A stretch of DNA of 59,223 nucleotides, filler included, from Asterionella formosa (lineage: Eukaryota): NCBI GenBank assembly GCA_002256025.1. It is 4 parts of 4 records of this genome, joined end to end, with 100 filler letters (N's around TTAATTAATTAA, not from the genome) between each part and the next. Parts side by side here need not be neighbours in the genome. Positions count along the whole stretch, not along the records: positions 1 to 14,735 come from NKIB01005782.1; 3 more parts are not named here. One strand, written 5' to 3'. Shown piece after piece: positions 6,039 through 44,495 of this stretch (positions are counted from its first letter, which is position 1; every line of letters starts with the position of its first letter). The notes below the pieces were generated by a model that saw nothing but the letters and a program-made list of their open reading frames with translations, was not told the DNA's origin and ran no database searches. The position numbers and the translations under genes are program-made.

Positions 6039-8231
6039 TTATAAAAACTCAGAAAACTGGTGTTCGAGATGTTTGCATAAAGCCTCCCTGTTACCGTCTG
6101 GATGCGCGGTCATCCAGTCCTCTTGCTCATCCATCACTTCTCTGAAGACTGGCCCGCGTGGAAGTTTTGGTAAAATATTCTTCTTGATTTCCTCACCGTC
6201 CAGCAACGGTTTTCTGTCCCAAATACCTATTAGGCCAAGTTTCTGAAGAGCACAAGCAAAAACATCATATCTGTCGACCACTCCTTGATGAAGCTCCTCT
6301 TGACTTTCACTGTAGAAGTCCCCTTCGATCGCATAATCTGCCAGTGTCTCGCAAGATTGAAGCTGCTCACACAGCGAGAGGACAAGTGCTGGGCGCCAAA
6401 GCGAACCTATTCGCTGCAGCACTTTGGATGTCAGAAGGCGGAACTCCATCGCGTGTTCCCACAATGGGTCGTCTTCTGACTCGCAATTGACAAGTTTACC
6501 TTGCATCTTGCATATCAATTGCTGGCTTAACGCATCGTGATTTGCATCCTTTGTGTGACACACTTCTATCCCTGATAAAAGAATAGATTGGGCGGACAGG
6601 TCGCACCCACTGTTGAGAAGTTGGGTAAAGTCATCTGCTGCCTTCATAATTTTGCAAACAGACTCAGCGTCACGAGTTGGTCGTTTTAAAGCCTCCACGA
6701 GAAGCTTCGAAACTAGAGATCGATTCGCTTTCTTTCCCTTATTGGGACTGCTCATATTTTCATCAAAAAGTTTCGCATTATCCATGAGCGGCTTCAAGAA
6801 TGCGGAATACCATAACAGTCGCCTCGATTCTTCATTATTTAAAAGAGTGTCTTCCTCAAAGCCATGGGTCGTGCGAGCTAACTTGGACTCACACCAAATG
6901 GGCGGGTCAACCTTGCAATCACACAAATGATCATGGGTCGTGGATATTAGATCAAGTCCCTTAGTGAACAATGAGCGTTCAGCTGGACTTTTGTTGGGTA
7001 AAACATTGCCGACGGCAAACACAGTCTCGACCAAATTGAGATTTATAAGAAGTCGCATAGCTCCGACAGGGTCAGGCGATCTGAGCATCAAATCCACTTC
7101 TCCTCCAACTCGTTCTCGCGAAACCTTTTGGGCCAATGCGTCGCGCACTCGGTCATCCATGGCAGCCTTGACAAGCGCTTCATCCATAGTAAATCGCAAG
7201 CGCGACGCAAAACGTACTGATCTCAAAACACGCAAGGGATCATCCATGAAGGTGGTCAGCGGAGCCAATGGCGTTGATATGACACCTCGTCGAAGGTCAT
7301 GGAACCCTCGTCCCGTGAAATCTTCTACTTGATGAGTATTGATATTGTAGAAAAGTGCGTTAATGGTGAGATCTCTTCGATATGCATCTTCAGCCGCAGT
7401 GCCAATTCTCATGAGATCGGGAATACGGCTATCTTGCGTATACTCTTCTGCGCGCAAGTTGACAAAATCAATCCAGAAACTTCCAACCTTCATTGTAGCT
7501 GTTTCCAAGTGCTTAGATTTTTCTGGGTTCTTCAGCACAACCCCGACAGAGACAGTCTTTTGACCCTGCCTAGTGAGATAATCATTGAGATGGTCGGCAA
7601 ACTCTCTTCCAAGCATATCATCCAATGCAATATCAATGTCCACTGGTTGGTTAATGTCTTCAACGACTACTTTGGTGCCCTGGCGCCCCATGGATGCTTG
7701 TGTTGATTTCTTGAACTTGGACGTCAGCCGCTGTTCAGCTGTGGAAAGATTCCTCTGAAACTCCGGTGATGCCAAGAGCTTGTCTCGGACCCATCCACCG
7801 GCCACCCGAAGCGTTGATTTGAGTCCTGTCTTGCCTGTAACTTGTCGTAGTAGTTCAAATAGTTCTGCTTCATCCTCTGTCAGGTTTATTCGAGGGCCAG
7901 TCGACTTGTTTACGTTGATTGAATCGTCATTGTTCCCATCCGATGAATCGTGTCCTTTTAGTGGCATGGATCCTATCAAGGTAGATGTTCCAATAATGTC
8001 AGAGCTACAAGAAAAGAATCTGAGTTCTCTGGAATCTGTTGCCATCATGGAAGGCATCAGCATTCTTCGTCTGGACAAGGCTCTTTGTGCCACTGAAAGC
8101 CTTGCAGATGGGATTGGTAAAAGACCACGAACCAAGGCACCATTGCCAGTAAAGAGGACGGAAGCCAGCATGATTCTACCACTCAGTTGCTTTCTCTGAT
8201 AGGTAGCGTCGATTCTTCGCCGCTGCGACAT
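6039..8231 (-). CDS. CCA1: CCA tRNA nucleotidyltransferase (class II CCA-adding enzyme / poly(A) polymerase family)
   Basis: Motifs LRVAGGWVRDKLL, DIDIALD, DFVNLRAEEY..DSRIP, DAYRRDLTINALFYN, DDPLRVLR and VSRERVG. First in-frame ATG is at 8231, with alternatives at 8171 and 8063-8045. Confidence 0.92.
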   Translation of the reverse strand: MSQRRRIDATYQRKQLSGRIMLASVLFTGNGALVRGLLPIPSARLSVAQRALSRRRMLMPSMMATDSRELRFFSCSSDIIGTSTLIGSMPLKGHDSSDGNNDDSINVNKSTGPRINLTEDEAELFELLRQVTGKTGLKSTLRVAGGWVRDKLLASPEFQRNLSTAEQRLTSKFKKSTQASMGRQGTKVVVEDINQPVDIDIALDDMLGREFADHLNDYLTRQGQKTVSVGVVLKNPEKSKHLETATMKVGSFWIDFVNLRAEEYTQDSRIPDLMRIGTAAEDAYRRDLTINALFYNINTHQVEDFTGRGFHDLRRGVISTPLAPLTTFMDDPLRVLRSVRFASRLRFTMDEALVKAAMDDRVRDALAQKVSRERVGGEVDLMLRSPDPVGAMRLLINLNLVETVFAVGNVLPNKSPAERSLFTKGLDLISTTHDHLCDCKVDPPIWCESKLARTTHGFEEDTLLNNEESRRLLWYSAFLKPLMDNAKLFDENMSSPNKGKKANRSLVSKLLVEALKRPTRDAESVCKIMKAADDFTQLLNSGCDLSAQSILLSGIEVCHTKDANHDALSQQLICKMQGKLVNCESEDDPLWEHAMEFRLLTSKVLQRIGSLWRPALVLSLCEQLQSCETLADYAIEGDFYSESQEELHQGVVDRYDVFACALQKLGLIGIWDRKPLLDGEEIKKNILPKLPRGPVFREVMDEQEDWMTAHPDGNREALCKHLEHQFSEFL

Positions 8232-8993
8232 GAGTATTTGTCTCGATAGCAATAGCAGCGCACAACTTGGAAGGTATTGATCGTTGCTGTTTGCAAGCAG
8301 TCCGGGTTCAGAGTTAATCTTTTGTCGTTGAAAGTAATTGTGGCACACGGAATGTACTCTTTGATTCCACAACGATGTCGTTGATTGAAAATGCTGCAGG
8401 CGTTTTTGTTGCAGTTGCTCGCGATGTTTCTACCTTTGAGCAGATTGTAGTCTGCAAATGCCTCGGTCCGAATGAAGTCAACACGATTATTACTCACAGT
8501 GCAGAAGAGGCCAAACTAAAAAGTAACTCCGTGCGATCTGTTCGCTTGCCGTATTTCTTACTCCACCATGAGAAATGGAGCTACAATTACTTCAATTATG
8601 CGTACGTTGTGATCGATGAGTACGCCGTCAAAACGAATCCCCTGCAGGNNNNNNNNNNNNNNNNNNNNNNNNNNNNNNNNNNNNNNNNNNNNNNNNNNNN
8701 NNNNNNNNNNNNNNNNNNNNNNNNNNNNNNNNNNNNNNNNNNNNNNNNNNNNNNNNNNNNNNNNNNNNNNNNNNNNNNNNNNNNNNNNNNNNNNNNNNNN
8801 NNNNNNNNNNNNNNNNNNNNNNNNNNNNNNNNNNNNNNNNNNNNNNNNNNNNNNNNNNNNNNNNNNNNNNNNNNNGGGTACACACAAATACCGGTAACAA
8901 TATTCTTACGCATGCATCTGAGGGAGAGATACTGTACTGTCAGCGACGATGGTGGTAGGTTGGAAAAGTTCTGTGATGAGACCTTTGATAGAC

Positions 8994-9000
8994 TATAAAT
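8994..9000 (+). promoter_or_regulatory. TATA-like box upstream of the candidate permuted tRNA
   Basis: TATAAAT lies about 25-30 nt before the inferred leader (about 9025). Function is inferred only. Confidence 0.4.
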
Positions 9001-9041
9001 AATTAGAAATCACCAGGTTTGGATGACGTGTCTATAAAGAC

Positions 9042-9129
9042 AGCCCAAGGTCGAGGGTTCAAACCCCTCCTCGAGCATGCTTCTCCTACGCTGCTCTTGT
9101 AACTCAGTGGTCAGAGTGTGGGTCTTATG
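9042..9129 (+). tRNA. Candidate circularly permuted tRNA-Ile(UAU): 3' half 9042-9077, 15-nt spacer, 5' half 9093-9129
   Basis: The rejoined halves give a 73-nt cloverleaf. D stem ACTC/GAGT, anticodon stem TGGGT/GCCCA, loop CT-TAT-GA, T arm GAGGG-TTCAAAC-CCCTC, acceptor GCTCTTG/CTCGAGC (5 of 7 paired), discriminator A. Confidence 0.75.
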
Positions 9130-9131
9130 AA

Positions 9132-9232
9132 AGCACGGCGAGAAATGTTTTTTACTTTTTTCCCACAATTTTTTCCAGATATTTTTAGCACGGCGAGAAA
9201 TGTTTTTTACTTTTTTCCCACAATTTTTTCCA
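9132..9232 (+). repeat. 55-nt-period tandem duplication containing oligo-T runs
   Basis: AGCACGGCGAGAAATGTTTTTTACTTTTTTCCCACAATTTTTTCCA occurs at 9132 and 9187, with a degenerate third unit near 9280-9317. Confidence 0.85.
9148..9153 (+). terminator. Pol III oligo-T terminator
   Basis: TTTTTT 18 nt after the tRNA 5' half, followed by further T runs. Confidence 0.55.
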
Positions 9233-10364
9233 TGTATTTTCTCCGGCGGTCTCTGCATATGGGTACAACATCATGGCATGCAGCACTTTTTACTATTTTC
9301 ACACAATTTTTTTCCAATATTTCCAAGCGTCTCTTCGTAACTTCAAGTATTGGTAGAGGGATGGTGGGTGGGTCATTTTATTTCTCAATTTTGCTTGATG
9401 GGGGACAGTAGCCTACCTTGTACCTGGTACACAGAAATTTCCTCAGGTGTTTTTCCACATTGCTTGAGTGTTGCATCATATGTGTGGAAAAGAAGCCAAA
9501 TGCAATTAGTTTACACTTTCTGTTAACTACCACTAATAGCCAACTTCAAGTAAATCAATAGTACAGTAAGGAAGCTATGAATAAGCTGCATGCACATTAT
9601 GCATCATTATTCACTAGTAGCTTGCTCGTTGCTACTACAAAAACTTAGCAAAGATTTATACTTGACATGATTTCCATTTGTTTGACTGACAAGCACAAAG
9701 GAGAACTAGAATGAATGATTGCAGTTGCTTCAATCTCAACAACATGCTTCCATGAACAACAATTACTGCGTATGCAGAAGCCTGCTGCTCTTACTATACT
9801 GATCTGTAAATGGATAGTCTCAACCATATAAACCAATAATTATGAGTGAGAAACACTACTGCTGGTAACCTATTATACTCATACAGGAATTACTGCACAA
9901 AGTCTGCAGAAGTCGTCAAATTCCAATTATGTACTGCAGCATTTACATTTTTATTTTTTGCTACTATGGAAGCATCCTCTATGTATCATTCTCTCATTTG
10001 TATCAAGCAATTATGAGAAATAACTAGTCTATTCTGGAGAATTTCTCCAGTTATGAATGTTTCCAATGTAAATGTTGGATAATCCTTTCTCACCCTCTAG
10101 AACTACTTGTTGCTACATAGAATATCCTCACCTGCAAGTTTGACTTGAAATGTATCAGTTGTAGTGGGTTAGTCTCAGATCTCCTGCAGACCCTATTGTC
10201 ATGAATTTTTCTTCTCTACTTCTTAGCTTGTCAGGCTCAGGCTGCCTACACCAAAACCCAATTCATGTGAATAGACTCCTCCTAGAAGCCAGAGTTATAA
10301 TGATTACTGAAACATAGTAAGCAAGTGTTCAAGTAAGTACTTGTAGCTATACCAGTAGTCGAAC

Positions 10365-10545
10365 ATGATGTACTCCCTCTGTTCATGTGTAGTTGCAACC
10401 AGCTAAGCAACTAATCTGGCTCATTTATCTTCCTTAAAGAATCCACTGTAGAAGCAATGTGCATTTTCTACGTGAGACAATGCATGCGACTGGTGCATCA
10501 GCTAGGTAGGTATATTTAGGCAAGTTATAATGCTAAATATAATTA
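10365..10545. repeat. Dispersed repeat family copy B (short fragment)
   Basis: ATGATGTACTCCCTCTGTTCA matches 22560. CTGTAGAAGCAA at 10446 matches 4898 and 22654. Confidence 0.7.
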
Positions 10546-11023
10546 GCAAATCAGAGCTTTTCTCGCTTCATGATAGCTCCTGCCAAAACAATTTTTGTTG
10601 CAACTAATACTGTTCGTCTATTCATATACTACCTTTACACAAAAATGAACGGAGGGAGTGTTGGGAGTAGATGATAGATTTACCGGTACACTACCGGCAC
10701 CGTTACACGGCTCTACCAGGTAGTCTTCCAATAAAATAAATAGGACAATGAAAAATATATGCAACTCCTACATCAAATAAACTGATACTCTTCTATGTTA
10801 ATAATCTATTTACACCACTCCTGCAAAGTACAGCACCATTCCGTTACCAGGCATGGTACCGGTACCTGGTACCTGGTACTATACCATCTTAATAACATAT
10901 GGCGGATACTGGTAGATACCGACATTTTCGATGGTGCAGCCCCACGCATTCAAGCAACTCGCTCCGGTATTAATCTGGACATGATACATTGACAAAGTTG
11001 TTTACGCTCACTTCTTTTTCTTA

Positions 11024-11481
11024 ATGGTAAGTTGTAACAATAAAGAATGCAGTGTGAAGATCTGCAATCGAAATTGAAAGGACTGAAGCGCAGAGGGGAT
11101 TGTCAATTGCATGAACAGAATCCCGGAATCGTTCACATTGCTGGTATCTGCAACCGTGTGTCATGCCCTCACATACACTCCCGGATTTCCTTGTCTCAGA
11201 TTTTTTATTCATTCTTCAAGACTCTGGTTGGAAAGGAGATTGCCGTGGAACTGAAAAATGATGTTGTCTTGACAGGGACTTTACACAGTGTAGATCAATA
11301 CCTAAATATCAAATTGTTGAATATCAAGGTCGTCACCCCAGAGAAATATCCACAGCTTTGTGCACTGCAGAACTGCTTTGTCCGAGGATCTGTCGTAAGG
11401 TACATTCAAATTCCACCAGAGTACGTTGACACAGAGCTGTTGCAAGATGCAGCGAGGAAGGAAAATGCTGCAAAAAAGTAA
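11024..11481 (+). CDS. LSM2: U6 snRNA-associated Sm-like protein LSm2 (coding exon 1 = ATG 11024-11026; exon 2 = 11200-11481)
   Basis: M|IFYSFFKTLVGKEIAVELKND...GTLHSVDQYLNIKL...NCFVRGSVVRYI...LLQDAARKE. Intron GTAAGT...TCTCAG at 11027-11199. Confidence 0.93.
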
Positions 11482-11969: not shown

Positions 11970-14609
11970 TCAAGGTAATGTCAATACTTCAACTGTGAGC
12001 ACCCAGAAAATTGTCCCGACATATAGCCCAAATGGATTTGTGCCAGTGCCCATTTCGCCCGCGGTTTGTTGCTCCTGATAGACAATTCTTCCGAGTACGT
12101 AGTCTGGGGTCCCTTCAATGTTATCCGTGCACAGATAACGATGCGGACAGTTCGTATGGAAGGCAAGATAAGTGCGCTTGCCTCCAGAACCACGCCCGGT
12201 AGGCATGAAAAGACCAACATCCCCGGTGACGAAACTGGAGTGACTTATTTTGTCACTGAGTGTCGTTTCTGTCTGCTTCACCAGCATCGCCTGCGCAAGC
12301 TTCTCCCGCTGCTTCGCATCCTCCAACTCCTTGCGCAATCTCAATAATTCTTTTCCTCTTGGATCGTTCTCGTCTTTGGTCTGCGCTTCCTCAATATAGG
12401 TGCGGGGAGTCTTCTGGCCCATCTTCTCAAGCGTTTGTCGAAGCACCGCGTTCTCATAAGCAAGAGTTTTGCGTTCTGCATCAGCAGCCGCCCCACCAGA
12501 TGGTTCAATGATCAAATCCTCCCCGGTTTGATCATCAGCGCTTACAATTAATTGCTCCTGGATGTGGAGATTATCCGGGCACATATTATCATCAGCCGGT
12601 GAATGGCTAGCTGCTGTCAATGATGACGCAGTACTTATCCCACCACCCTGCATATGAGCGTCTGACGATGAACCTCCAACAGTATCAGCAGGACCCACAT
12701 CCGGAAGTGTATCCATCTCAACCATTGCAGGCAGCTGCGGAGTGAATAAAGGCGGAGGGGTCGTCAAAGTAGGCGCGAAAATCTCGAAAAAAGGAGGCAT
12801 TAAGTGCCTACCAGAACCACGCAAAAACTTCTCTCTTGCTTTAAGTTCGTCTCCCCTCATTGAGGCCAAACGTTCCATCATGGCAGTTGACGATGAAGTC
12901 ACGGCAGCACCATACGCCCTTCGTCGACGAATTTCAGATAAAAAGTCTCGATAAGAATCAGGAAGTTCTGCAACATGTTCTAAATGTCCCATATTCTCCG
13001 AATGCTGATTGAGCGCCTCGCGCAGAACTGTCACACTGGAAGTCACCCGTTGGATTGCTGATTGTGACACGCTAACTTCGCGCAGGCGGACTTTCATTCT
13101 CTTCATGGCTTCTGTCTTTGACGTTGCTACTTTCTGCATCAACTGAGCAAGGTCTTCGTCGTCTTTCAGCATCGCGGGCAAAATTTCGTGTGATGACTTT
13201 GACATGTCCTCGAGCGTGGCAAACGCGGCTTGAGCACCCGCTCCTGTGATCGCATCCATGACAACCTTCACTACTTGACTATGATCCGAGGTAAGTTTGT
13301 CTAGTCGTTGTGCCTGAAGATCGCGAATGTGTTGTCCTATCGTTTCGACTTCGTTCCATAGACTCTTTATAGCGGATTCACCTTGCAAATCCATTCTTGC
13401 TTCTTCTTCGCGAGTCGCTGTGGTACCTAGAACACTGAATGACGAGTCCAAATCTGCAAACATTGCCAATAAACGCTGGTGAGACGTCTGGCACTGACTC
13501 GCCCATGCACGCTCCCGCTCGACAGGTACTGTGTCTAGGAGCGTTTCCATGACTCTTCCGGATGCCCGGGCTATTGATACCAGCGATGAATGAAGCATTA
13601 TACTGGACAACGAAGTCAAAATAGACTCAAATCTTTGCAATAATGATCCATGTGCGGACATTTTGGTTTGAAACTCCGTTGAAAATTCAGATCGTAACCT
13701 CAAAGTACTGTTGAAATGAACAGAAAGATTGGACACAGCTGCTCGGAGAGCCCTTGCCATTATGGCTTGTTCTGAAACACAGGTCTGACAAGCTGAGAGT
13801 CTTAAATCAGCTCCATCTGCTAGGACGCGACCACTGTCCAAGTTTAACATAAAGCGTCGTTCATAAACTTGAAGCGCCTGGTGCAAGGGTGAATTAGATG
13901 GTTCACCAAATTGCAGTGGACTAGGTCCTGGTTCTGCAGGCAACCTCAAAATCAAAGGTTCGAGAATACACGCAGGTGGATCAGGTGCTTGTTCTGACAA
14001 GGCTCTCTTCGAAAAAAGAAAGAGCCGACGTGCCCCTGAGCCCTCAGTCGTGGACAATGTTCCCTCTGCATCACTGTCCTCAATATCACCCAAGTGCAGC
14101 GAATTCAGAACGTCATCCGACTGAAACGTGGAATCTTTTGGTACTTTGTACGGCGGTCCTAGCAACAGAATTTGATCAGGTATTGGAATAGCTGCAGCTA
14201 AATGGCGCCGAATATTGGAAATACTGTAAATTGAGAGAAGCAGATTCAAAACGAGTCAGCAGAGACGTTAACAGTATCTTTTTTGCAAAGAATTCCATAT
14301 CATTTTGTTCGAAGGGGCGCTCCAAACAACTAAAAAACCGAAAATGGCGCTGTGCTCAGTCATAAAAGAGCGTTGCTTCACAATGAAGTAAAGTCCTCGT
14401 CGTAATCACCACCATCTGCAGTAGCTACCGTTGACTCAACCCGAAAGCGATCACAGGTGATGGAAGAACCCGGAATTAAAGAACATGAAGAAAACTCACC
14501 TCAATTCAGACGAATGCAAAGCAATGTGGTAACAAACTCCAGTACTCGCTGAGAGCACACGTATGTGCTTGATCTGGCCGCTGGACGCCGCCATCATGGT
14601 CGATGACAT
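11970..14609 (-). CDS. ATG11: Autophagy protein ATG11 / RB1CC1(FIP200)-like, 2 exons (14609-14500, 14223-11970)
   Basis: N-terminal ubiquitin-like segment (HIRVLSASTG...IPIPDQILL...LFLFSK), long coiled coil with SEIRRRR, and C-terminal claw-type motif KISHSSF..GDVGLF...NCPHRYL...YVLGRIV...NPFGL. The GTGAGT...TTACAG intron restores frame. Confidence 0.82.
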
Positions 14610-14735: not shown

Positions 14736-14835
14736 NNNNNNNNNNNNNNNNNNNNNNNNNNNNNNNNNNNNNNNNNNNNTTAATTAATTAANNNNNNNNN
14801 NNNNNNNNNNNNNNNNNNNNNNNNNNNNNNNNNNN
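14736..14835. other. Artificial 100-nt scaffold linker (N44-TTAATTAATTAA-N44)
   Basis: All-frame stop linker flanked by Ns, identical at three sites. Confidence 0.97.
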
Positions 14836-15763
14836 TCAGGTTACTAGCCCATTTCATGACCCACTTCAAACCCAACATGATTTTCGATGCCTTTTGACAT
14901 CTAGACCATCAGGTTAGCCCCTCCATGGTAGACATTGAAACCGACTTGATTGTTGATGCCAGTAACTAGTCTCACACCATCTTGGTTGACATCTAGACCA
15001 ACAAATGAGTCCATGTTGTGGCCAAACTAAAACTGACATTTATGCCAACAGCTGATCCCACCCCTTGGCTGAAGATCAAGAATTGGTAGAAAGGCTTAAA
15101 CCCTAATTCTAACACCAACAATAAATAACAATTTGGAAACGCAATTGGTAGAAAAACTAAAAATGGATTCCAATTTGGATCCAAATTGGCATTTCTGTGT
15201 AGCTACAATATACCTACTGGTATGTATCTTCTTTTAGCTTAACCAGATCACACCAAATTGGTTTCCATAATACCATTTCGGCAAACAAAAAGGATTTGGG
15301 ATACAGCCATGGAAAAAGAAACGAAAACCCCTTGAAATCCAAATTTGGAAACCCAATTGGGTACTTTTTCCCTCGAAATTGGGTACCGGTATACTTCTCG
15401 GCTTCGTTACCTGGTACCAGTAAAGATTATGCTACATATGTAACAAACCGTTATGTGTCGTACTAATTATGCGCACCTCACCATCTCTTTCGGGACAGAA
15501 CAACAAGATGAGATTGCCGTCTGCTGTGCATTAAATCTCCCTACCGTCACTGTTTATTGGTGGTTGCAAATTAAAAAGACTTTGGGAACTTGGAGCGTTG
15601 CATTCCTAGCACAACGATAGCGGGATACATTGAAGAAAGAACTAGCGCTTCGTCATCAACAATTATTACTTCGGTTGAAATATATTTACCTGATTTTGTT
15701 TCCATCGTGTGGTGATCAACTATTTGCCTGGAAAGAAGCCGAGCAATTCAGGGAATAATTATC

Positions 15764-16996
15764 ATGTCCTTCTCAAATGCTCGACTTGTCATTCGAAATT
15801 TGCCGTTTCATCAATCTTGCAATGTTGTAAACATTCGCCATTCGGGCAAGGATATTTGGACAATGGCCAATTTATTGAGGGAAGATTGGTTCCACGTCTT
15901 GTTACGACGTCCTACATTGTTGATCTTTTTCTCCTTGTGGGTTATTTGGACAGCGGCTATCTTAATTTTTGCTGCAATCTATCAGGCGGTAGACAACGCG
16001 TACGAGTTTACAGACTGCGGCCTATCCAGTAACTTTGGGAAGCTCAGCTTTGGGGGCTTCTTTGCCTTTAGTTTACAAACCTGCACGACCGTGGGATATG
16101 GTCTCCCTGGAAGCACGCAAGCCTTTTTTGAAAGTTGCCCTCTTATCCAAGTCGTCATTTTTTGCCAAATGACGTACAGTATGCTGTTTCATGCCTTTGC
16201 TGTTGCTCTCCTCTTTGTGCGATATGCCAGGAGTGAATCACGAGGAAATCAGGTCATTATGAGTCAAACATGTTGCATCCGAATAGAAGAAAACAGATGG
16301 ATTTTGGAAGTTCGGGTGCATGACATGGACGCAATGCACCCAATTGTCGAATCCCATGTGCGTCTCTATGCTCGAACCAAGACAAATGAGCTTGTCCTGC
16401 TTCGCACATTAAGTCCCAATGACGAAACTGGAGGAATGCTGTTCTTGGGTTGCCCATCACTGATTCGACATGAAATTGATGCCTATTCGCCATTGCACCC
16501 AACCATGTTGCACAAATTTCGATTGCCTGGAACTGGGTTGTTCCTTCGTGATGCAGATTCAAGGACAGGGAGTATTGAACAATTGGTATGTCCAATATGT
16601 TCAGAATCATATGGTGATATGGATCGGTTGCGAGCGCATGTACAATTCTTTCAAATAACTGAAGGCAAAACAGGATATCCTGTCAAAGGTTCGCATCAAT
16701 CACTAAAAGTCACTGATTTCCATGTTTCCAATCCTCCCACCCATAAGGAGATGAAAGACTCTTTTCCAGAAGAGATTCTTGTGGTGGTTGAAGGGATTGA
16801 GCCACTCCAGTCTGGAACTTTTCAATCTTTGCAGTCTTACAAAATGGAGGATGTTTCATGGGGTGGCCGCTTTGCAGATTGTGTATTTACTGGAGAGACT
16901 ACTGGAAGTACTGTTGTGGTGAATTTAAAAGCATTTCATCAAGTACACATGGATGAGGGGGCATTGGGAATTGTCCATGTTGACAAGCAGGATTGA
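15764..16996 (+). CDS. Inward-rectifier (Kir-like) K+ channel, paralog A, with zinc-finger-like insertion
   Basis: Slide helix DWFHVLL, M1, TDCG, pore FAFSLQTCTTVGYG, CP, M2 and cytoplasmic EILVVVEGIEPLQSGTFQSLQSY....WG.RF. Confidence 0.88.
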   Translation: MSFSNARLVIRNLPFHQSCNVVNIRHSGKDIWTMANLLREDWFHVLLRRPTLLIFFSLWVIWTAAILIFAAIYQAVDNAYEFTDCGLSSNFGKLSFGGFFAFSLQTCTTVGYGLPGSTQAFFESCPLIQVVIFCQMTYSMLFHAFAVALLFVRYARSESRGNQVIMSQTCCIRIEENRWILEVRVHDMDAMHPIVESHVRLYARTKTNELVLLRTLSPNDETGGMLFLGCPSLIRHEIDAYSPLHPTMLHKFRLPGTGLFLRDADSRTGSIEQLVCPICSESYGDMDRLRAHVQFFQITEGKTGYPVKGSHQSLKVTDFHVSNPPTHKEMKDSFPEEILVVVEGIEPLQSGTFQSLQSYKMEDVSWGGRFADCVFTGETTGSTVVVNLKAFHQVHMDEGALGIVHVDKQD

Positions 16997-17842
16997 GGGC
17001 ATTTTTCCTGAATTATTTGAAATGTTGATTGATGATGATTGTACTTGATAATTGCATGGTGGAACAATTGATATGCAGGCCACCCCTTCTTGATAACAGT
17101 ACATAAAGCATGAAGTCAAATTTCGCACATGTCTTTGTTTCGTGTTTGAGGCTAAATGGAACTATCATAAAACACATCACTATATCTGGTAAAATATCAT
17201 TTATGGTTTTTAAAAGAACCTATCTTTTGGTCTTTATGTACCGGGTAGGAGAAACCCAGGGAAAAAGGCACTATAGGGGGGCGGATGTGCAGTTTAACAC
17301 CATGCAATAAATATATACCAGTAGTATGTACCTGCATTCGTCTACCATTATCATTTCTAAATTTACATCAGCATTTTTTATATATATATATATTTGTAAT
17401 AAAGGGGCTTTCTTGTGGAGGGTATCAATCAAATATGTGCTTTCGCAAAGAGAATTCTGTTACCCCTCTGATAAATTCAAATGATATAAGGAATATATTC
17501 CTATATACTGGCATACAATATATCAAAAATAGAAGTGAAAATTTAGCAGCAGTAAAATACCAGAAAGCGTCTGATGCTTCCAAGAGGCACATGGATGGAC
17601 AACATCAGTTCAGCTGGCTGTTATTAGACTACCGGCACCAGCAGTCTACATCTTGATAGAGGAAGGAGGGATCGGGTAATACTTCTGGTACCACATTCTC
17701 ATCGCTCAACGAAAGATCAAATCGTCCTCAACGACCGCACGAAACATCATTTTAACGATTAAAAGTGAAGTGTTAAATGCAGAAGAATTTGTGAAAAGAA
17801 GAACTCTATTTATCGAAAAAGTGATAAACTGGATCAATCATC

Positions 17843-19072
17843 ATGGCTTCATCGAGCGCTCGACTGATCCTGCGAAATTTGCCATTTCATCAATCTCGCA
17901 ATGTTGTAAGCATCCGTCATTCAGGAAAGGATGCCTTGCAGATGGCTAGTTTATTGAAGGAAGATTGGCTTCACGTCATGTTGCGACTTCCCACTGCGGT
18001 AACCATGTTCGGCTTGTTAACCATTTGGGCTGCATCCATTTTCGTATTTGCTGCCATTTATCAGGCGGTAGACAATGCATACGAGTTTACAGACTGCGGC
18101 CTATCCAGTAGCTTTGGGAAGCTCAGCTTTGGGGGCTTCTTTGCCTTTAGTTTGCAAACCTGCACGACTGTGGGGTACACGTTGCCTGGCAGTACACAGG
18201 CTTTCTTTAAGAACTGCCCCGCCGTACAGATTGTCATTTACTTCCAAATGTTGTTTAGCCTTAGTCTAAATGCCTTTCTATTTTCTTTCTTTTTTGCAAG
18301 ATTGGCCAGGAGTGAAGCGAGAGGAGCTCAAGTCATTATGGGTCGCAATTGTTGCATCCGAACAGAAGGAAATAAATGGGTTTTGGAAATTCGGGTACAT
18401 GATACAGACGCTATGCATCCCATTGTCGAATCACATGTAAGACTCTATGCCCGAACCAAGACAAACGAACTTATTCGTTTGCGTACCATTAGTCCAAACG
18501 ACGAGACTGGAGCCATGTTGTTTTTTTCTTGGCCGTCCATTGTTCGGCACGAGATCGACGCGTATTCAGCGTTACATCCAAACATGCTGCACAAGTTTCG
18601 ATTGCCTGGAACTGGGTTGTTCCTTCGTGAAGCCGATTCTAGAACAGGTAATGTTGAACAAATAATATGTCCAATCTGTTCTGAATCGTATGGTGAAATT
18701 GATCGCCTGAGAGCGCACGTGCAATACAACCAATTGGTTGAAACATTTGACAATATTCCTGTCCAAGGTTCGCATCAATCTCTCAAAGTCGAAGATTTTT
18801 TAAATCCTCGCCCTCCTACCCTTCAAGAAATGAAAGAATCTTTTCCAGAGGAGATTCTGGTAATTGTGGAAGGCATTGAGCCGCTCATGTCGGGGACGTT
18901 TCAATCAATGCAGTCCTACAAATTTGAGGACGTTTCATGGGGTGGCCGCTTTGCCGATTGCATTATTACTGAGGAAGGATCCACAGTTTTTGTGAATCTT
19001 GAAACGTTTCATAAAATAGATGTTGATGAGGAGACACAAGGAAAGGTTCATGATGAGGAGAAAAACGATTGA
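17843..19072 (+). CDS. Inward-rectifier (Kir-like) channel, paralog B (filter TVGYT)
   Basis: Tandem paralog of 15764-16996 with the same architecture. Pore reads FAFSLQTCTTVGYT. Confidence 0.88.
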   Translation: MASSSARLILRNLPFHQSRNVVSIRHSGKDALQMASLLKEDWLHVMLRLPTAVTMFGLLTIWAASIFVFAAIYQAVDNAYEFTDCGLSSSFGKLSFGGFFAFSLQTCTTVGYTLPGSTQAFFKNCPAVQIVIYFQMLFSLSLNAFLFSFFFARLARSEARGAQVIMGRNCCIRTEGNKWVLEIRVHDTDAMHPIVESHVRLYARTKTNELIRLRTISPNDETGAMLFFSWPSIVRHEIDAYSALHPNMLHKFRLPGTGLFLREADSRTGNVEQIICPICSESYGEIDRLRAHVQYNQLVETFDNIPVQGSHQSLKVEDFLNPRPPTLQEMKESFPEEILVIVEGIEPLMSGTFQSMQSYKFEDVSWGGRFADCIITEEGSTVFVNLETFHKIDVDEETQGKVHDEEKND

Positions 19073-27166: not shown

Positions 27167-29566
27167 CTAAAAACTTGCAAATATCTTATTTTCTTTGGGC
27201 GTAATAGGTGGATCAACCTTTGTAGTCTTGTCCACCAAATGATCCCAATTCTCAAAATTTGCGGTATCCAAAGGATCCTTAATCTTTGGAACCCATGGAG
27301 CTCTATATTCCCTTTCCTTCAAACGTTCAAAACNNNNNNNNNNNNNNNNNNNNNNNNNNNNNNNNNNNNNNNNNNNNNNNNNNNNNNNNNNNNNNNNNNN
27401 NNNNNNNNNNNNNNNNNNNNNNNNNNNNNNNNNNNNNNNNNNNNNNNNNNNNNNNNNNNNNNNNNNNNNNNNNNNNNNNNNNNNNNNNNNNNNNNNNNNN
27501 NNNNNNNNNNNNNNNNNNNNNNNNNNNNNNNNNNNNNNNNNNNNNNNNNNNNNNNNNNNNNNNNNNNNNNNNNNNNNNNNNNNNNNNNNNNNNNNNNNNN
27601 NNNNNNNNNNNNNNNNNNNNNNNNNNNNNNNNNNNNNNNNNNNNNNNNNNNNNNNNNNNNNNNNNNNNNNNNNNNNNNNNNNNNNNNNNNNNNNNNNNNN
27701 NNNNNNNNNNNNNNNNNNNNNNNNNNNNNNNNNNNNNNNNNNNNNNNNNNNNNNNNNNNNNNNNNNNNNNNNNNNNNNNNNNNNNNNNNNNNNNNNNNNN
27801 NNNNNNNNNNNNNNNNNNNNNNNNNNNNNNNNNNNNNNNNNNNNNNNNNNNNNNNNNNNNNNNNNNNNNNNNNNNNNNNNNNNNNNNNNNNNNNNNNNNN
27901 NNNNNNNNNNNNNNNNNNNNNNNNNNNNNNNNNNNNNNNNNNNNNNNNNNNNNNNNNNNNNNNNNNNNNNNNNNNTGTGGCGGCGATGCATGAAGGATAG
28001 GCCCTCGAGAATACCAGCTCCATAAAATTTGGCACTCTTTTCTGGCACACCATCGAACGTGGACTTGTGCAATACAGAGTATAGTTCTCCTCCTTGAACC
28101 AACCCCAACAGCATATAGACACGTTGACTGTCCTGGTATGTATGGACCAATCGAATGATGAAGGGACTCTTTAGTTGGGCCATGATATCCTTCTCTTGTA
28201 CGACACCTGAAGCTTGATTATTTTGAATTAATTCGTACTTGGACTGAACTTTGAGTGCATATGGAACTTTGATTCCGTCTCGGTTGGAGCGTGAGACCAA
28301 CCAAACTTGTCCAAAAGTTCCAGCTCCCAAAATCTTATGGCGCTGCAAATCGGACATTTTGATGTCTGCATCCCCTCCAATTAAGGATGCAGTCATTTTA
28401 GTCTTGCCCTTTCCAACCAATGTGGTATCAATCATAGTACGACATTCTTCCAATGAAAGGCATCCCAATGTACAGTTTTCCAAAACAGTCACTGTGTATG
28501 CTGGGGTGCACACAGGATCACGATTGGAACCTAACTTTGCATCCTCAGCCAACATGTCTTCACCAAAATATCCACCTTCGCCAATGTCCTTGTCAATTTT
28601 CCCATCAGCAGACTTTATGTGTACACGACCTTTTCGGACTAAGTAAAATGCGGCATCCACTTGTTCTCCCTGAGTAAAAATGACATACCCAGTGCGGTAA
28701 ACATCATCGACAATCAGGTCGGCCAAGGCGGCCAGATCAGATGGGTCCAAGTGAGTATGTTGAATAATCTTGAGAGCGGCCTGTAGAAGAATTGAATGGA
28801 AATGTGGAAAATTAGTCATCATTAGTAAATTTGTGAATAAAGAAAGTCTTGACAAGGAAAACAGGGACTTACCAAGGTTCTTTTGTCAGTTGCCTTTATC
28901 ACTAATTGACTCAAATTGCCCATAACCTTGGAAAAGGTGTCACTATCAATGCTCAATGCAATCCCCTTTGTCACACCAATACAATTTGCCGCTCTTGGCT
29001 CCTTTGTCACCAAAGCTCGTTCACCAAAGAAATCCCCCGGTCCCAACACTTGATCTTCAAATGGTTGACCTCCAACTTCAATATTTGTCGCCTTGACTTT
29101 TCCTTCTTGAATGACATAAAATGCATCACCTACTTCTCCTTTTTTGAAAATATATTCTGCTTCATTAAATGGACGCACTCTCATGGTTCCAACCAACTTG
29201 TTCAAATCAGTAGGATCCAAATCCTTCAAAAAGGAAATGTTTCTCAACAAATCAATTTTGGCCTTGTCGGCTTGTTGAGTTTGAGTTTGAAGGATATACC
29301 GAAAGGTGGTCTGATCGACTCGAAACAAAGTGCAATTGGTAATTGCAATGGCCGACGCAGCTCTAGGACAAGTGTACAACAAACTCAATTCTCCAAAGCA
29401 ATGTCCCCGCTTTGCCGTCCCCACCTCCTTGCCATTAACTTCGAATCTAACTTGACCGTGAAGCAGTACATAAAAGTAGTCTCCTTGATCACCTTGTTGA
29501 ATAATAACATCATCGTTAGGTACATGAACTTTTTCAAAAGCAGCAATCATGGTTTTCATTTCCCGA
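27167..29566 (-). CDS. cGMP-dependent protein kinase-like (at least 3 cNMP-binding domains + kinase); 5'-truncated by scaffold end, internal N gap 27334-27975, intron 28872-28781
   Basis: cNMP motifs FGELSLLYTCPRAAS, FFGERALVTKEPRAA and YFGEDML. Kinase motifs LGAGTFGQVWLV, YALK and GGELY. AGC tail APWVPKIKDPLDTANF...F..F. Confidence 0.9.
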
Positions 29567-29666
29567 NNNNNNNNNNNNNNNNNNNNNNNNNNNNNNNNNN
29601 NNNNNNNNNNTTAATTAATTAANNNNNNNNNNNNNNNNNNNNNNNNNNNNNNNNNNNNNNNNNNNN
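29567..29666. other. Artificial 100-nt scaffold linker
   Basis: N44-TTAATTAATTAA-N44. Confidence 0.97.
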
Positions 29667-44395: not shown

Positions 44396-44495
44396 NNNNN
44401 NNNNNNNNNNNNNNNNNNNNNNNNNNNNNNNNNNNNNNNTTAATTAATTAANNNNNNNNNNNNNNNNNNNNNNNNNNNNNNNNNNNNNNNNNNNN
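44396..44495. other. Artificial 100-nt scaffold linker
   Basis: N44-TTAATTAATTAA-N44. Confidence 0.97.

Follow-up and report, generated by a model that had tools for sequence, protein, structure and literature searches.

The DNA analysed here, hereafter the window, is a stretch of 59,223 nucleotides (nt) from the Asterionella formosa assembly GCA_002256025.1, and it carries on its plus strand, at 9042-9129, the two halves of an isoleucine transfer RNA gene with the anticodon UAU, tRNA-Ile(UAU), in inverted order. The 3' half (9042-9077, 36 nt) comes first and corresponds to tRNA positions 38-73, namely the 3' strand of the anticodon stem, the variable loop, the T arm, the 3' strand of the acceptor stem and the discriminator A73, with no CCA end encoded. 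It is followed by an intervening spacer (9078-9092, 15 nt), free of any run of four T, and by the 5' half (9093-9129, 37 nt), which corresponds to positions 1-37, namely the 5' strand of the acceptor stem, the D arm, the 5' strand of the anticodon stem, C32, U33, the anticodon U34 A35 U36 and G37. The two halves are flanked on the same strand by a leader (9018-9041) and a trailer (9130-9147). Leader positions 9027-9031 (CGTGT) pair with trailer positions 9133-9137 (GCACG), and A9037, A9038 and G9039 pair with U34, U33 and C32, respectively; G9039-C32 constitutes the anticodon-intron pair, and A9040, C9041 and A38 form a 3-nt bulge holding the 3' cut site. A TATA-like element (TATAAAT, 8994-9000, +), situated 48 nt before the 3' half, is a presumed TFIIIB/RNA polymerase III promoter, and a run of six T (9148-9153, +), at +19, is a presumed RNA polymerase III terminator.

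When the halves are joined by their coordinates in a script (9093-9129 followed by 9042-9077), ARAGORN recognises a 73-nt tRNA-Ile(tat) with regular D, T and anticodon arms, a D stem that holds an A10-U25 pair, and an acceptor stem made of five pairs plus U5·C68 and U6·U67. The anticodon loop, CUUAUGA, has the usual seven nt, U33 and the anticodon UAU, with G at position 37. In the native order no tRNA is found by ARAGORN, also with introns allowed, and nothing is found by Rfam, as is expected because the gene is permuted. Each half is present once in the window and none of 100 shuffles matches; moreover, when 72 T-arm-like motifs of the window were rotated in the same manner, only the 9042-9129 locus yielded a tRNA. 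The original prediction, made by reading the window, had proposed a circularly permuted tRNA-Ile(UAU) gene interrupted at 37/38, with a 73-nt cloverleaf after rejoining, an A10-U25 pair in the D stem and two acceptor mismatches. The positions and letters that it gave for the halves, spacer, TATAAAT, T6, leader, trailer and G9039 are all found in the sequence, its cloverleaf and A10-U25 pair are those of the ARAGORN fold, and its two mismatches are the only ones in the acceptor stem of that call. The permuted gene as a whole gains further support from independent data, from sequence constraint, from a family of similar loci and from compensatory changes, as follows.

Sequence constraint at the locus

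Parts of the region 8876-11000 are carried by 20 DNA sequencing runs from 14 studies, mostly freshwater metagenomes, and four runs were compared. Contigs from three runs of three studies cover the locus without any difference from the window (X6, 8971-9160; X1, 9018-9130; X9, 9016-9161). Since these contigs span the half boundaries, the order of 3' half then 5' half is supported by three data sets, and the window itself may derive from one of them.

A second haplotype or strain is present in X1 and X9. It differs from the window by nine single-nucleotide polymorphisms (SNPs) and a 5-nt deletion in 8906-9017, and by four SNPs and two insertions in 9131-9186, but by nothing in the 113 nt of 9018-9130, where both forms collapse into one contig. 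With a flank divergence of about 0.077 per nt (about 8%), the chance of finding no difference in 113 nt is about 1e-4 by our own arithmetic. This conserved block begins 24 nt upstream of the 3' half and ends one nt past the 5' half, and thus matches the predicted precursor minus the distal trailer. The locus is under purifying selection, and it is not a relic, because the flanks differ by about 8% but none of the 113 positions does. TATAAAT itself contains one of the SNPs that mark the second haplotype (8998 A>G).

Furthermore, loose ends of contigs reveal additional loci, one in X1 and X6 and one in X9, in which a T arm and an acceptor 3' strand are followed by a short, different spacer and a window-like 5' half, within other flanks. 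Instead of the G1-C72 and U5·C68 of the window, the X9 locus shows A1-U72 and U5·G68. In the X1/X6 locus, the 3' acceptor strand would mismatch the 5' strand of the window at three positions.

Downstream of the gene, a 54-nt unit that starts inside the tRNA trailer is present in three direct copies (9132-9185, 9187-9240 and 9270-9323, with 100%, 96% and 72% identity), so that both the T-run and the trailer strand of the helix recur downstream. In one X1 contig, position 9186 is joined directly to 9329; the 142 nt missing in between suggest copy-number variation between haplotypes. The only match of an RNA run (X22) is to 9201-9233 in this repeat, with less than 95% likeness and unlike sequence on both sides, and has no bearing on expression.

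Permuted relatives, cloverleaf and junction

A metagenome contig collection was scanned for T-loop, D-loop and anticodon-arm motifs in permuted order. The search pattern fixed the anticodon loop, including G37, but left free the acceptor stem, the D stem and the 3' strand of the anticodon stem, whose fit is therefore independent of the search. Of the 22 loci that matched, 21 share the permuted build of the window and represent 17 distinct sequences; the remaining one (L005) is a tRNA-Cys followed by unrelated DNA and was dropped from the family. Identical cores (L002, L020, L012 and L018) were removed before counting, so that the window and the 17 metagenome loci make 18 distinct sequences, and L019, a near-duplicate of L006, was left out of the 17-locus analysis of junction register and identity only. 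Flanks of the metagenome loci were examined up to about 1 kb on each side, and a host was assigned for only three loci. The permuted pattern had no match in 596 Gb of prokaryote genomes.

All 18 distinct sequences rejoin into a 73-nt tRNA-Ile(tat) according to ARAGORN. Each permuted locus contains one 3'-half motif followed by one 5'-half motif, and the surroundings of all 21 loci are free of conventional tRNAs to a distance of about 1 kb. The spacers are 5-29 nt long, unrelated in sequence and devoid of T4 (0/18). Identity between loci amounts to 86-88% at exon positions outside the pattern and to only 26% in the leader from -30 to -7; because the flanks are unrelated, and with a single copy in the 59-kb window, the gene does not behave as a unit of a tRNA-derived short interspersed nuclear element (SINE) or of another dispersed repeat. 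The inverted order that the original prediction had proposed to look for in relatives is hence seen in 21 metagenome loci, and neither of the two contrary situations that it had considered there, i.e. tandem intact tRNA genes and a SINE or multicopy repeat, was encountered.

Two features of individual spacers were also noted. Those of the loci L008 (1001-1102, -) and L014 (1001-1088, -), 29 and 15 nt long, contain small inverted repeats, so that an extra hairpin can form in the loop that closes the acceptor stem. In the near-identical L006 (536-617, +) and L019 (147-226, -), the spacer starts with CCA right after A73; at 2/18, this is probably chance rather than an encoded CCA end.

A relaxed pattern (R at position 37) was applied to viral contigs and gave six matches (L023-L028), all of them conventional tandem arrays with A37. 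They were rejected as relatives, since their two parts belong to separate complete conventional tRNAs and none rejoins, and they served as a control. These phage and giant-virus contigs carry dense arrays of conventional tRNAs, including tRNA-Ile(UAU) with A37.

The permuted cloverleaf was scored on an alignment (A1) of the 18 distinct sequences in native order. In this alignment 93.4% of the cloverleaf cells pair, a share that falls to 28-53% after a shift of the 3' partners by 1-3 columns; both sides have changed in eight of the 21 pairs, and 0/500 shuffles reach any of the five measures. Compensatory changes occur in three of the four stems, the D stem being invariant. Indeed (i) pair 27:43 is U-A, A-U or G·U among the 18 sequences, (ii) pair 50:64 is C-G, U-A or A-U, and (iii) the acceptor pairs 1:72, 2:71, 3:70, 4:69, 5:68 and 7:66 each show at least one double change. 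Pair 6:67 is U·U in 18/18. Without any structure supplied, RNAalifold finds the same permuted cloverleaf on A1. The canonical elements, namely U8, G18G19, U33, the T54-C56 loop, A73 and the 73-nt class I geometry, are present and conserved, and the anticodon loop is invariant across the family (fixed by the pattern in the metagenome members).

At the junction, G at -3, that is, three nt before A38, is present in 18/18; it pairs with C32 and leaves a 3-nt bulge at the 3' site. The pairs C32:-3, U33:-4 and U34:-5 are all formed in 16 of the 17 scored loci, and A35:-6 is formed as well in 3/17, which gives a central helix of three pairs in 13/17, four pairs in 3/17 and two pairs in 1/17. The outer helix is in the strict register of a bulge-helix-bulge (BHB) motif in 7/17 and lies 1-4 nt further out in the rest, window included. 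Leader and trailer sequences differ between loci yet are complementary within each locus: the mean energy of the leader-trailer duplex is -8.77 kcal/mol for cognate and -5.00 kcal/mol for non-cognate combinations, with 0/5000 permutations as good, and the cognate duplex of the window has -6.9 kcal/mol. Because the outer helix is often off the strict register and the fourth central pair is mostly missing, the predicted leader-trailer motif is classed as a relaxed BHB. Such a motif fits the eukaryotic splicing endonuclease, because this enzyme is described as measuring from the tRNA body and needing the anticodon-intron pair (PMC4090602).

Flanking signals are likewise shared: a TATA word lies at -41 to -48 in 11/18 and within 70 nt in 14/18, and a run of at least four T occurs within 23 nt after G37 in 17/18. 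The details proposed in advance for the junction of the window therefore recur in the family. G9039 opposite C32 has its invariant equivalent, the pairing of U33/U34 with A9038/A9037 is matched in the 16 loci mentioned above, the CGTGT/GCACG helix has counterparts complementary within each locus, and the arrangement of TATAAAT upstream and T6 downstream, with no terminator between the halves, is present in the window and echoed in its relatives.

Host, neighbouring genes and age

The host was sought in the neighbouring proteins. The best named relatives of the Tfb2 protein (TFIIH subunit) of the window are those of Grammatophora (62%) and Fragilaria (60%), followed by other pennate diatoms; PsbU of locus L004 has its best named relatives in Chaetoceros (78%) and other centric diatoms, and the named relatives of ATG11 of locus L011 are all diatoms. 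Judged from these relatives, the window is nuclear DNA of a pennate diatom and the host of L004 is a Chaetoceros-like centric diatom.

In the window, the permuted gene is followed by an LSm-domain gene (11185..11478, +), sharing 82% identity by tblastn with the LSm open reading frame (ORF) of L011, in which Pfam recognises LSM, and by an ATG11 gene (11970..14255, -; Pfam ATG17_like and ATG11), which is convergent with the tRNA. In 10 distinct metagenome loci the LSm gene is an adjacent, divergently oriented neighbour of the permuted tRNA, and in the window it is found 2 kb downstream. L011 likewise has the 3' end of an ATG11 gene in convergent orientation to its tRNA, the two ATG11 proteins being 43% identical over 283 amino acids. 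A second neighbour is common to L013, L022 and L001/L002/L020, and a third to L015/L018 and L021. Shared synteny supports orthology, and from the hosts and the synteny it follows that the gene was already permuted in a common ancestor of distant diatoms.

The third neighbour (L015:1140-2066, +; L018; L021:460-1044, +) is an ORF without a Pfam family, with 50-59% identity, that diverges from the tRNA; it may mark a second conserved genomic site of the permuted gene. In the window, upstream of the tRNA and beyond an N run, the gene at 6039-8429 (-) contains a poly(A) polymerase/tRNA nucleotidyltransferase head domain (PF01743, E = 3.9e-25). That a member of the CCA-adding enzyme family is encoded beside a tRNA gene is probably a coincidence, and no such neighbour was seen beside the other permuted loci within the examined flanks. 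Further along, two tandem genes code for inward-rectifier-type potassium channels (15716-16996, + and 17828-19072, +; IRK and IRK_C domains). The window also shows a pattern of 44 N, 12 bases and 44 N at 14736-14835, 29567-29666 and 44396-44495, and longer N runs at 8649-8875 and 27334-27975; these N stretches may be scaffolding gaps or masking.

Interpretation and comparison with known systems

In this pennate diatom, the locus is very probably a functional nuclear tRNA-Ile(UAU) gene that is circularly permuted and, given the 37/38 junction, of type II. This reading draws on the gene order, its presence in independent data, the purifying selection, the covariation of the cloverleaf and of the leader-trailer helix, the flanking signals, the conservation across diatoms with synteny and the diatom host, all of them established above. 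RNA polymerase III would start downstream of the TATA element and end at the T-run, giving one precursor composed of leader, 3' half, 15-nt spacer, 5' half and trailer. This precursor would fold into the cloverleaf, with the spacer closing the acceptor stem and the first and last exon nucleotides forming the anticodon stem, and the leader and trailer would pair with each other and with C32, U33 and U34, imitating a canonical 37/38 intron. The tRNA splicing endonuclease would then cut after G37 and before A38, and tRNA ligase would join the ends into a circular RNA, from which RNase P and RNase Z would excise the spacer before CCA is added. The intron-like leader-trailer helix may keep intron-dependent pseudouridylation of U34 and U36 possible.

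Several points weigh against this reading. The window copy has two adjacent acceptor mismatches, U5·C68 beside U6·U67, which weakens its acceptor stem; pair 5:68 is unpaired in 3/18 only (the window, L004 and L022), the U5·C68 state recurring in two Chaetoceros-type loci, and the block of the window is free of polymorphism. Pair 3:70 is mismatched in four members. With its flanks, the window precursor has a minimum-energy fold other than the cloverleaf and an unremarkable energy (z = 0.23). Folding of single sequences does not discriminate, since for most members it yields only part of the cloverleaf (for the core, 18/19 target pairs in the window and 0-15 in other members). The four-pair central helix of a strict hBHBh' motif is formed in only 3/17 loci, none of which has the strict outer register. 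From the DNA sequence, transcription, each step of processing, isoleucine charging and AUA decoding are predicted, the isoleucine identity being read from the anticodon.

A further point concerns position 37. A37, with its modification N6-threonylcarbamoyladenosine (t6A), is near-universal in tRNAs reading ANN codons. A37 would thus be expected of a eukaryotic cytosolic tRNA-Ile(UAU), but position 37 is G in the window and in the two loose-end loci; it is also G in the 17 metagenome members, where the search pattern imposed it, so that relatives with A37 could exist. G37 excludes t6A37, and it lowers the certainty on decoding, not on being a tRNA.

Alternatively, the locus might encode a conserved expressed RNA other than an ordinary Ile-decoding tRNA, namely a tRNA-like RNA with a different role, a stable RNA circle as final product, or a tRNA whose identity or decoding is altered by G37. 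This is unlikely: G37, the invariant U6·U67 and the further acceptor mismatches of some copies agree with it, but all canonical tRNA elements are conserved with an invariant anticodon loop, the four stems stay paired, three of them with compensatory changes, and a splicing substrate would require just such a conserved G at -3 and flanking helix. Yeast tRNA-Ile(UAU) presumably carries the U6·U67 mismatch as well, which would argue for orthology. A non-functional relic is considerably less probable still and is already largely refuted. Tandem tRNA arrays do give the same succession of 3' end, short spacer and 5' start, as in all six viral-contig matches, and the window copy combines its two acceptor mismatches with a 54-nt repeat after the trailer. 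Against this stand the exact break at 37/38 in 21 loci, with no matching 3' half following and no 5' half preceding within about 1 kb, the lack of any difference over the 113-nt block beside flanks that differ by about 8%, the compensatory changes and the leader-trailer covariation, and a synteny kept across diatoms whose ATG11 proteins are only 43% identical. The unrelated flanks of the loci moreover speak against a dispersed repeat unit.

Split tRNA genes of the Nanoarchaeum type are separate loci with their own promoters, joined in trans. A comparable fate of the present halves, as separate RNAs or as a cut but unligated, non-covalently held tRNA, is highly improbable. In its favour, ligation is so far a predicted step; against it, only 5-29 nt separate the halves, which follow each other on one strand, 18/18 spacers lack a T-run, a second TATA is absent, and with a break in the anticodon loop an unligated tRNA could not decode. 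The probability of an assembly artefact, which the original prediction had itself envisaged, is close to nil. The sole element in its favour is the 227-N run (8649-8875) that ends 166 nt upstream of the tRNA locus; it is refuted by the contigs of the three runs, which span both half boundaries without a difference, and the same order is found in 21 independent metagenome contigs.

Beyond the functional permuted gene itself, a wider proposal can be formulated, possible but somewhat doubtful as a whole: diatoms would have no nuclear source of tRNA-Ile(UAU) other than the permuted gene, fixed before the split of pennate and centric diatoms and kept at an LSm-linked locus. It would represent the first permuted tRNA of stramenopiles and the first permuted isoacceptor to be conserved throughout an entire major lineage, and would explain why tRNA finders miss the AUA decoder; through G37 it would be a cytosolic ANN reader without t6A37, and its pseudo-intron would be kept for pseudouridylation of the anticodon.

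Permuted tRNA genes are rare, and the conserved diatom case extends the phenomenon to stramenopiles, which are major primary producers. It indicates that such a gene can persist throughout the history of a large lineage and need not be a sporadic curiosity. Because standard tools (ARAGORN and Rfam here) miss the gene, diatom annotations probably have no AUA decoder. G37 in an ANN decoder is a testable peculiarity, and cultured, genetically tractable diatoms would open the circular-intermediate pathway to direct testing.

According to a 2014 review by Soma, 34 permuted tRNA genes were known at that time, in Cyanidioschyzon merolae, four prasinophytes, the Bigelowiella natans nucleomorph and Thermofilum, none of them for Ile(UAU), and the words diatom, stramenopile and heterokont are missing from the text of that review (PMC3978253). 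Later additions, as far as the accessible parts of the sources tell, came also from chlorarachniophyte nucleomorphs, from Auxenochlorella (PMC12636532) and from the prasinovirus BpV1 (PMC3673656). The last two were noticed via incomplete tRNAscan-SE sets; their permuted genes are of the same kind as that of diatoms, but belong to the green-algal lineage or its viruses. In the available text of a 2026 review of tRNA genes in photosynthetic eukaryotes, Phaeodactylum is mentioned only for its small number of tRNA genes, and in that of the PlantRNA 2.0 preprint C. merolae is the sole organism for which permuted genes are mentioned. In agreement with the original prediction, which knew of no diatom or stramenopile case, neither a permuted tRNA of a diatom or other stramenopile nor a permuted Ile(UAU) was found in the literature searched (subscription papers, Maruyama 2010 and supplementary figures being outside its scope). 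The locus is a real, conserved permuted tRNA-Ile(UAU) gene. Its predicted mechanism belongs to a known kind, and that literature reports permuted tRNAs neither from its lineage nor for its isoacceptor.

The closest systems are the type II permuted genes of Ostreococcus, Micromonas, the B. natans nucleomorph and C. merolae, in which the 3' half likewise precedes the 5' half on one strand, as described in the same 2014 review (PMC3978253). Known permuted genes have a TATA-like sequence upstream, a T-stretch downstream, an intervening sequence of 1-74 nt without any signal and a BHB-type junction, and the circular RNA intermediate has been shown experimentally for Cyanidioschyzon (PMC3978253). 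The diatom gene resembles them in its 37/38 junction, its TATA element about 50 nt upstream, its T-stretch, the absence of a signal between the halves, the absence of CCA and the short intervening sequence (15 nt in the window, 5-29 nt in its relatives). It differs in its diatom host, its Ile(UAU) specificity, the relaxed form of its predicted BHB-type leader-trailer motif, with a central helix usually of three pairs, and G37. It differs furthermore in its conservation: permuted isoacceptors are reported as not conserved among organisms (PMC3978253), whereas the permuted Ile(UAU) gene is kept with synteny from pennate to centric diatoms. The viral tandem arrays used as a control display the same local pattern, i.e. 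a T arm and acceptor 3' end, a spacer of 4-8 nt and the start of a tRNA-Ile(UAU), but there A37 of the Ile(UAU) gene is followed by a 3' half of its own, and 0/6 rejoin.

Since tRNA-Ile(UAU) is a classic tRNA with a 37/38 intron, the isoacceptor fits an origin from an intron-containing gene, and for the same reason the case bears on the idea that permutation arises from such genes. Diatoms are stated to have a Trl1-type tRNA ligase (PMC4090602). In yeast, the intron of tRNA-Ile(UAU) is described as required by Pus1 for pseudouridine at positions 34 and 36 (PMC4090602, PMC9602550), and the leader-trailer pairing with C32, U33 and U34 could, by analogy, preserve the intron requirement of a Pus1-type pseudouridylation. 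The diatom gene shares with the conventional intron-bearing tRNA-Ile(UAU) genes of yeast and of C. merolae, the latter with three introns (PMC9602550), the anticodon UAU, the interruption at 37/38 and the intron-like pairing with C32, U33 and U34; in contrast to these genes, its exon order is reversed, its 'intron' is split into leader and trailer, a circular intermediate would be required, and position 37 is G, not A.

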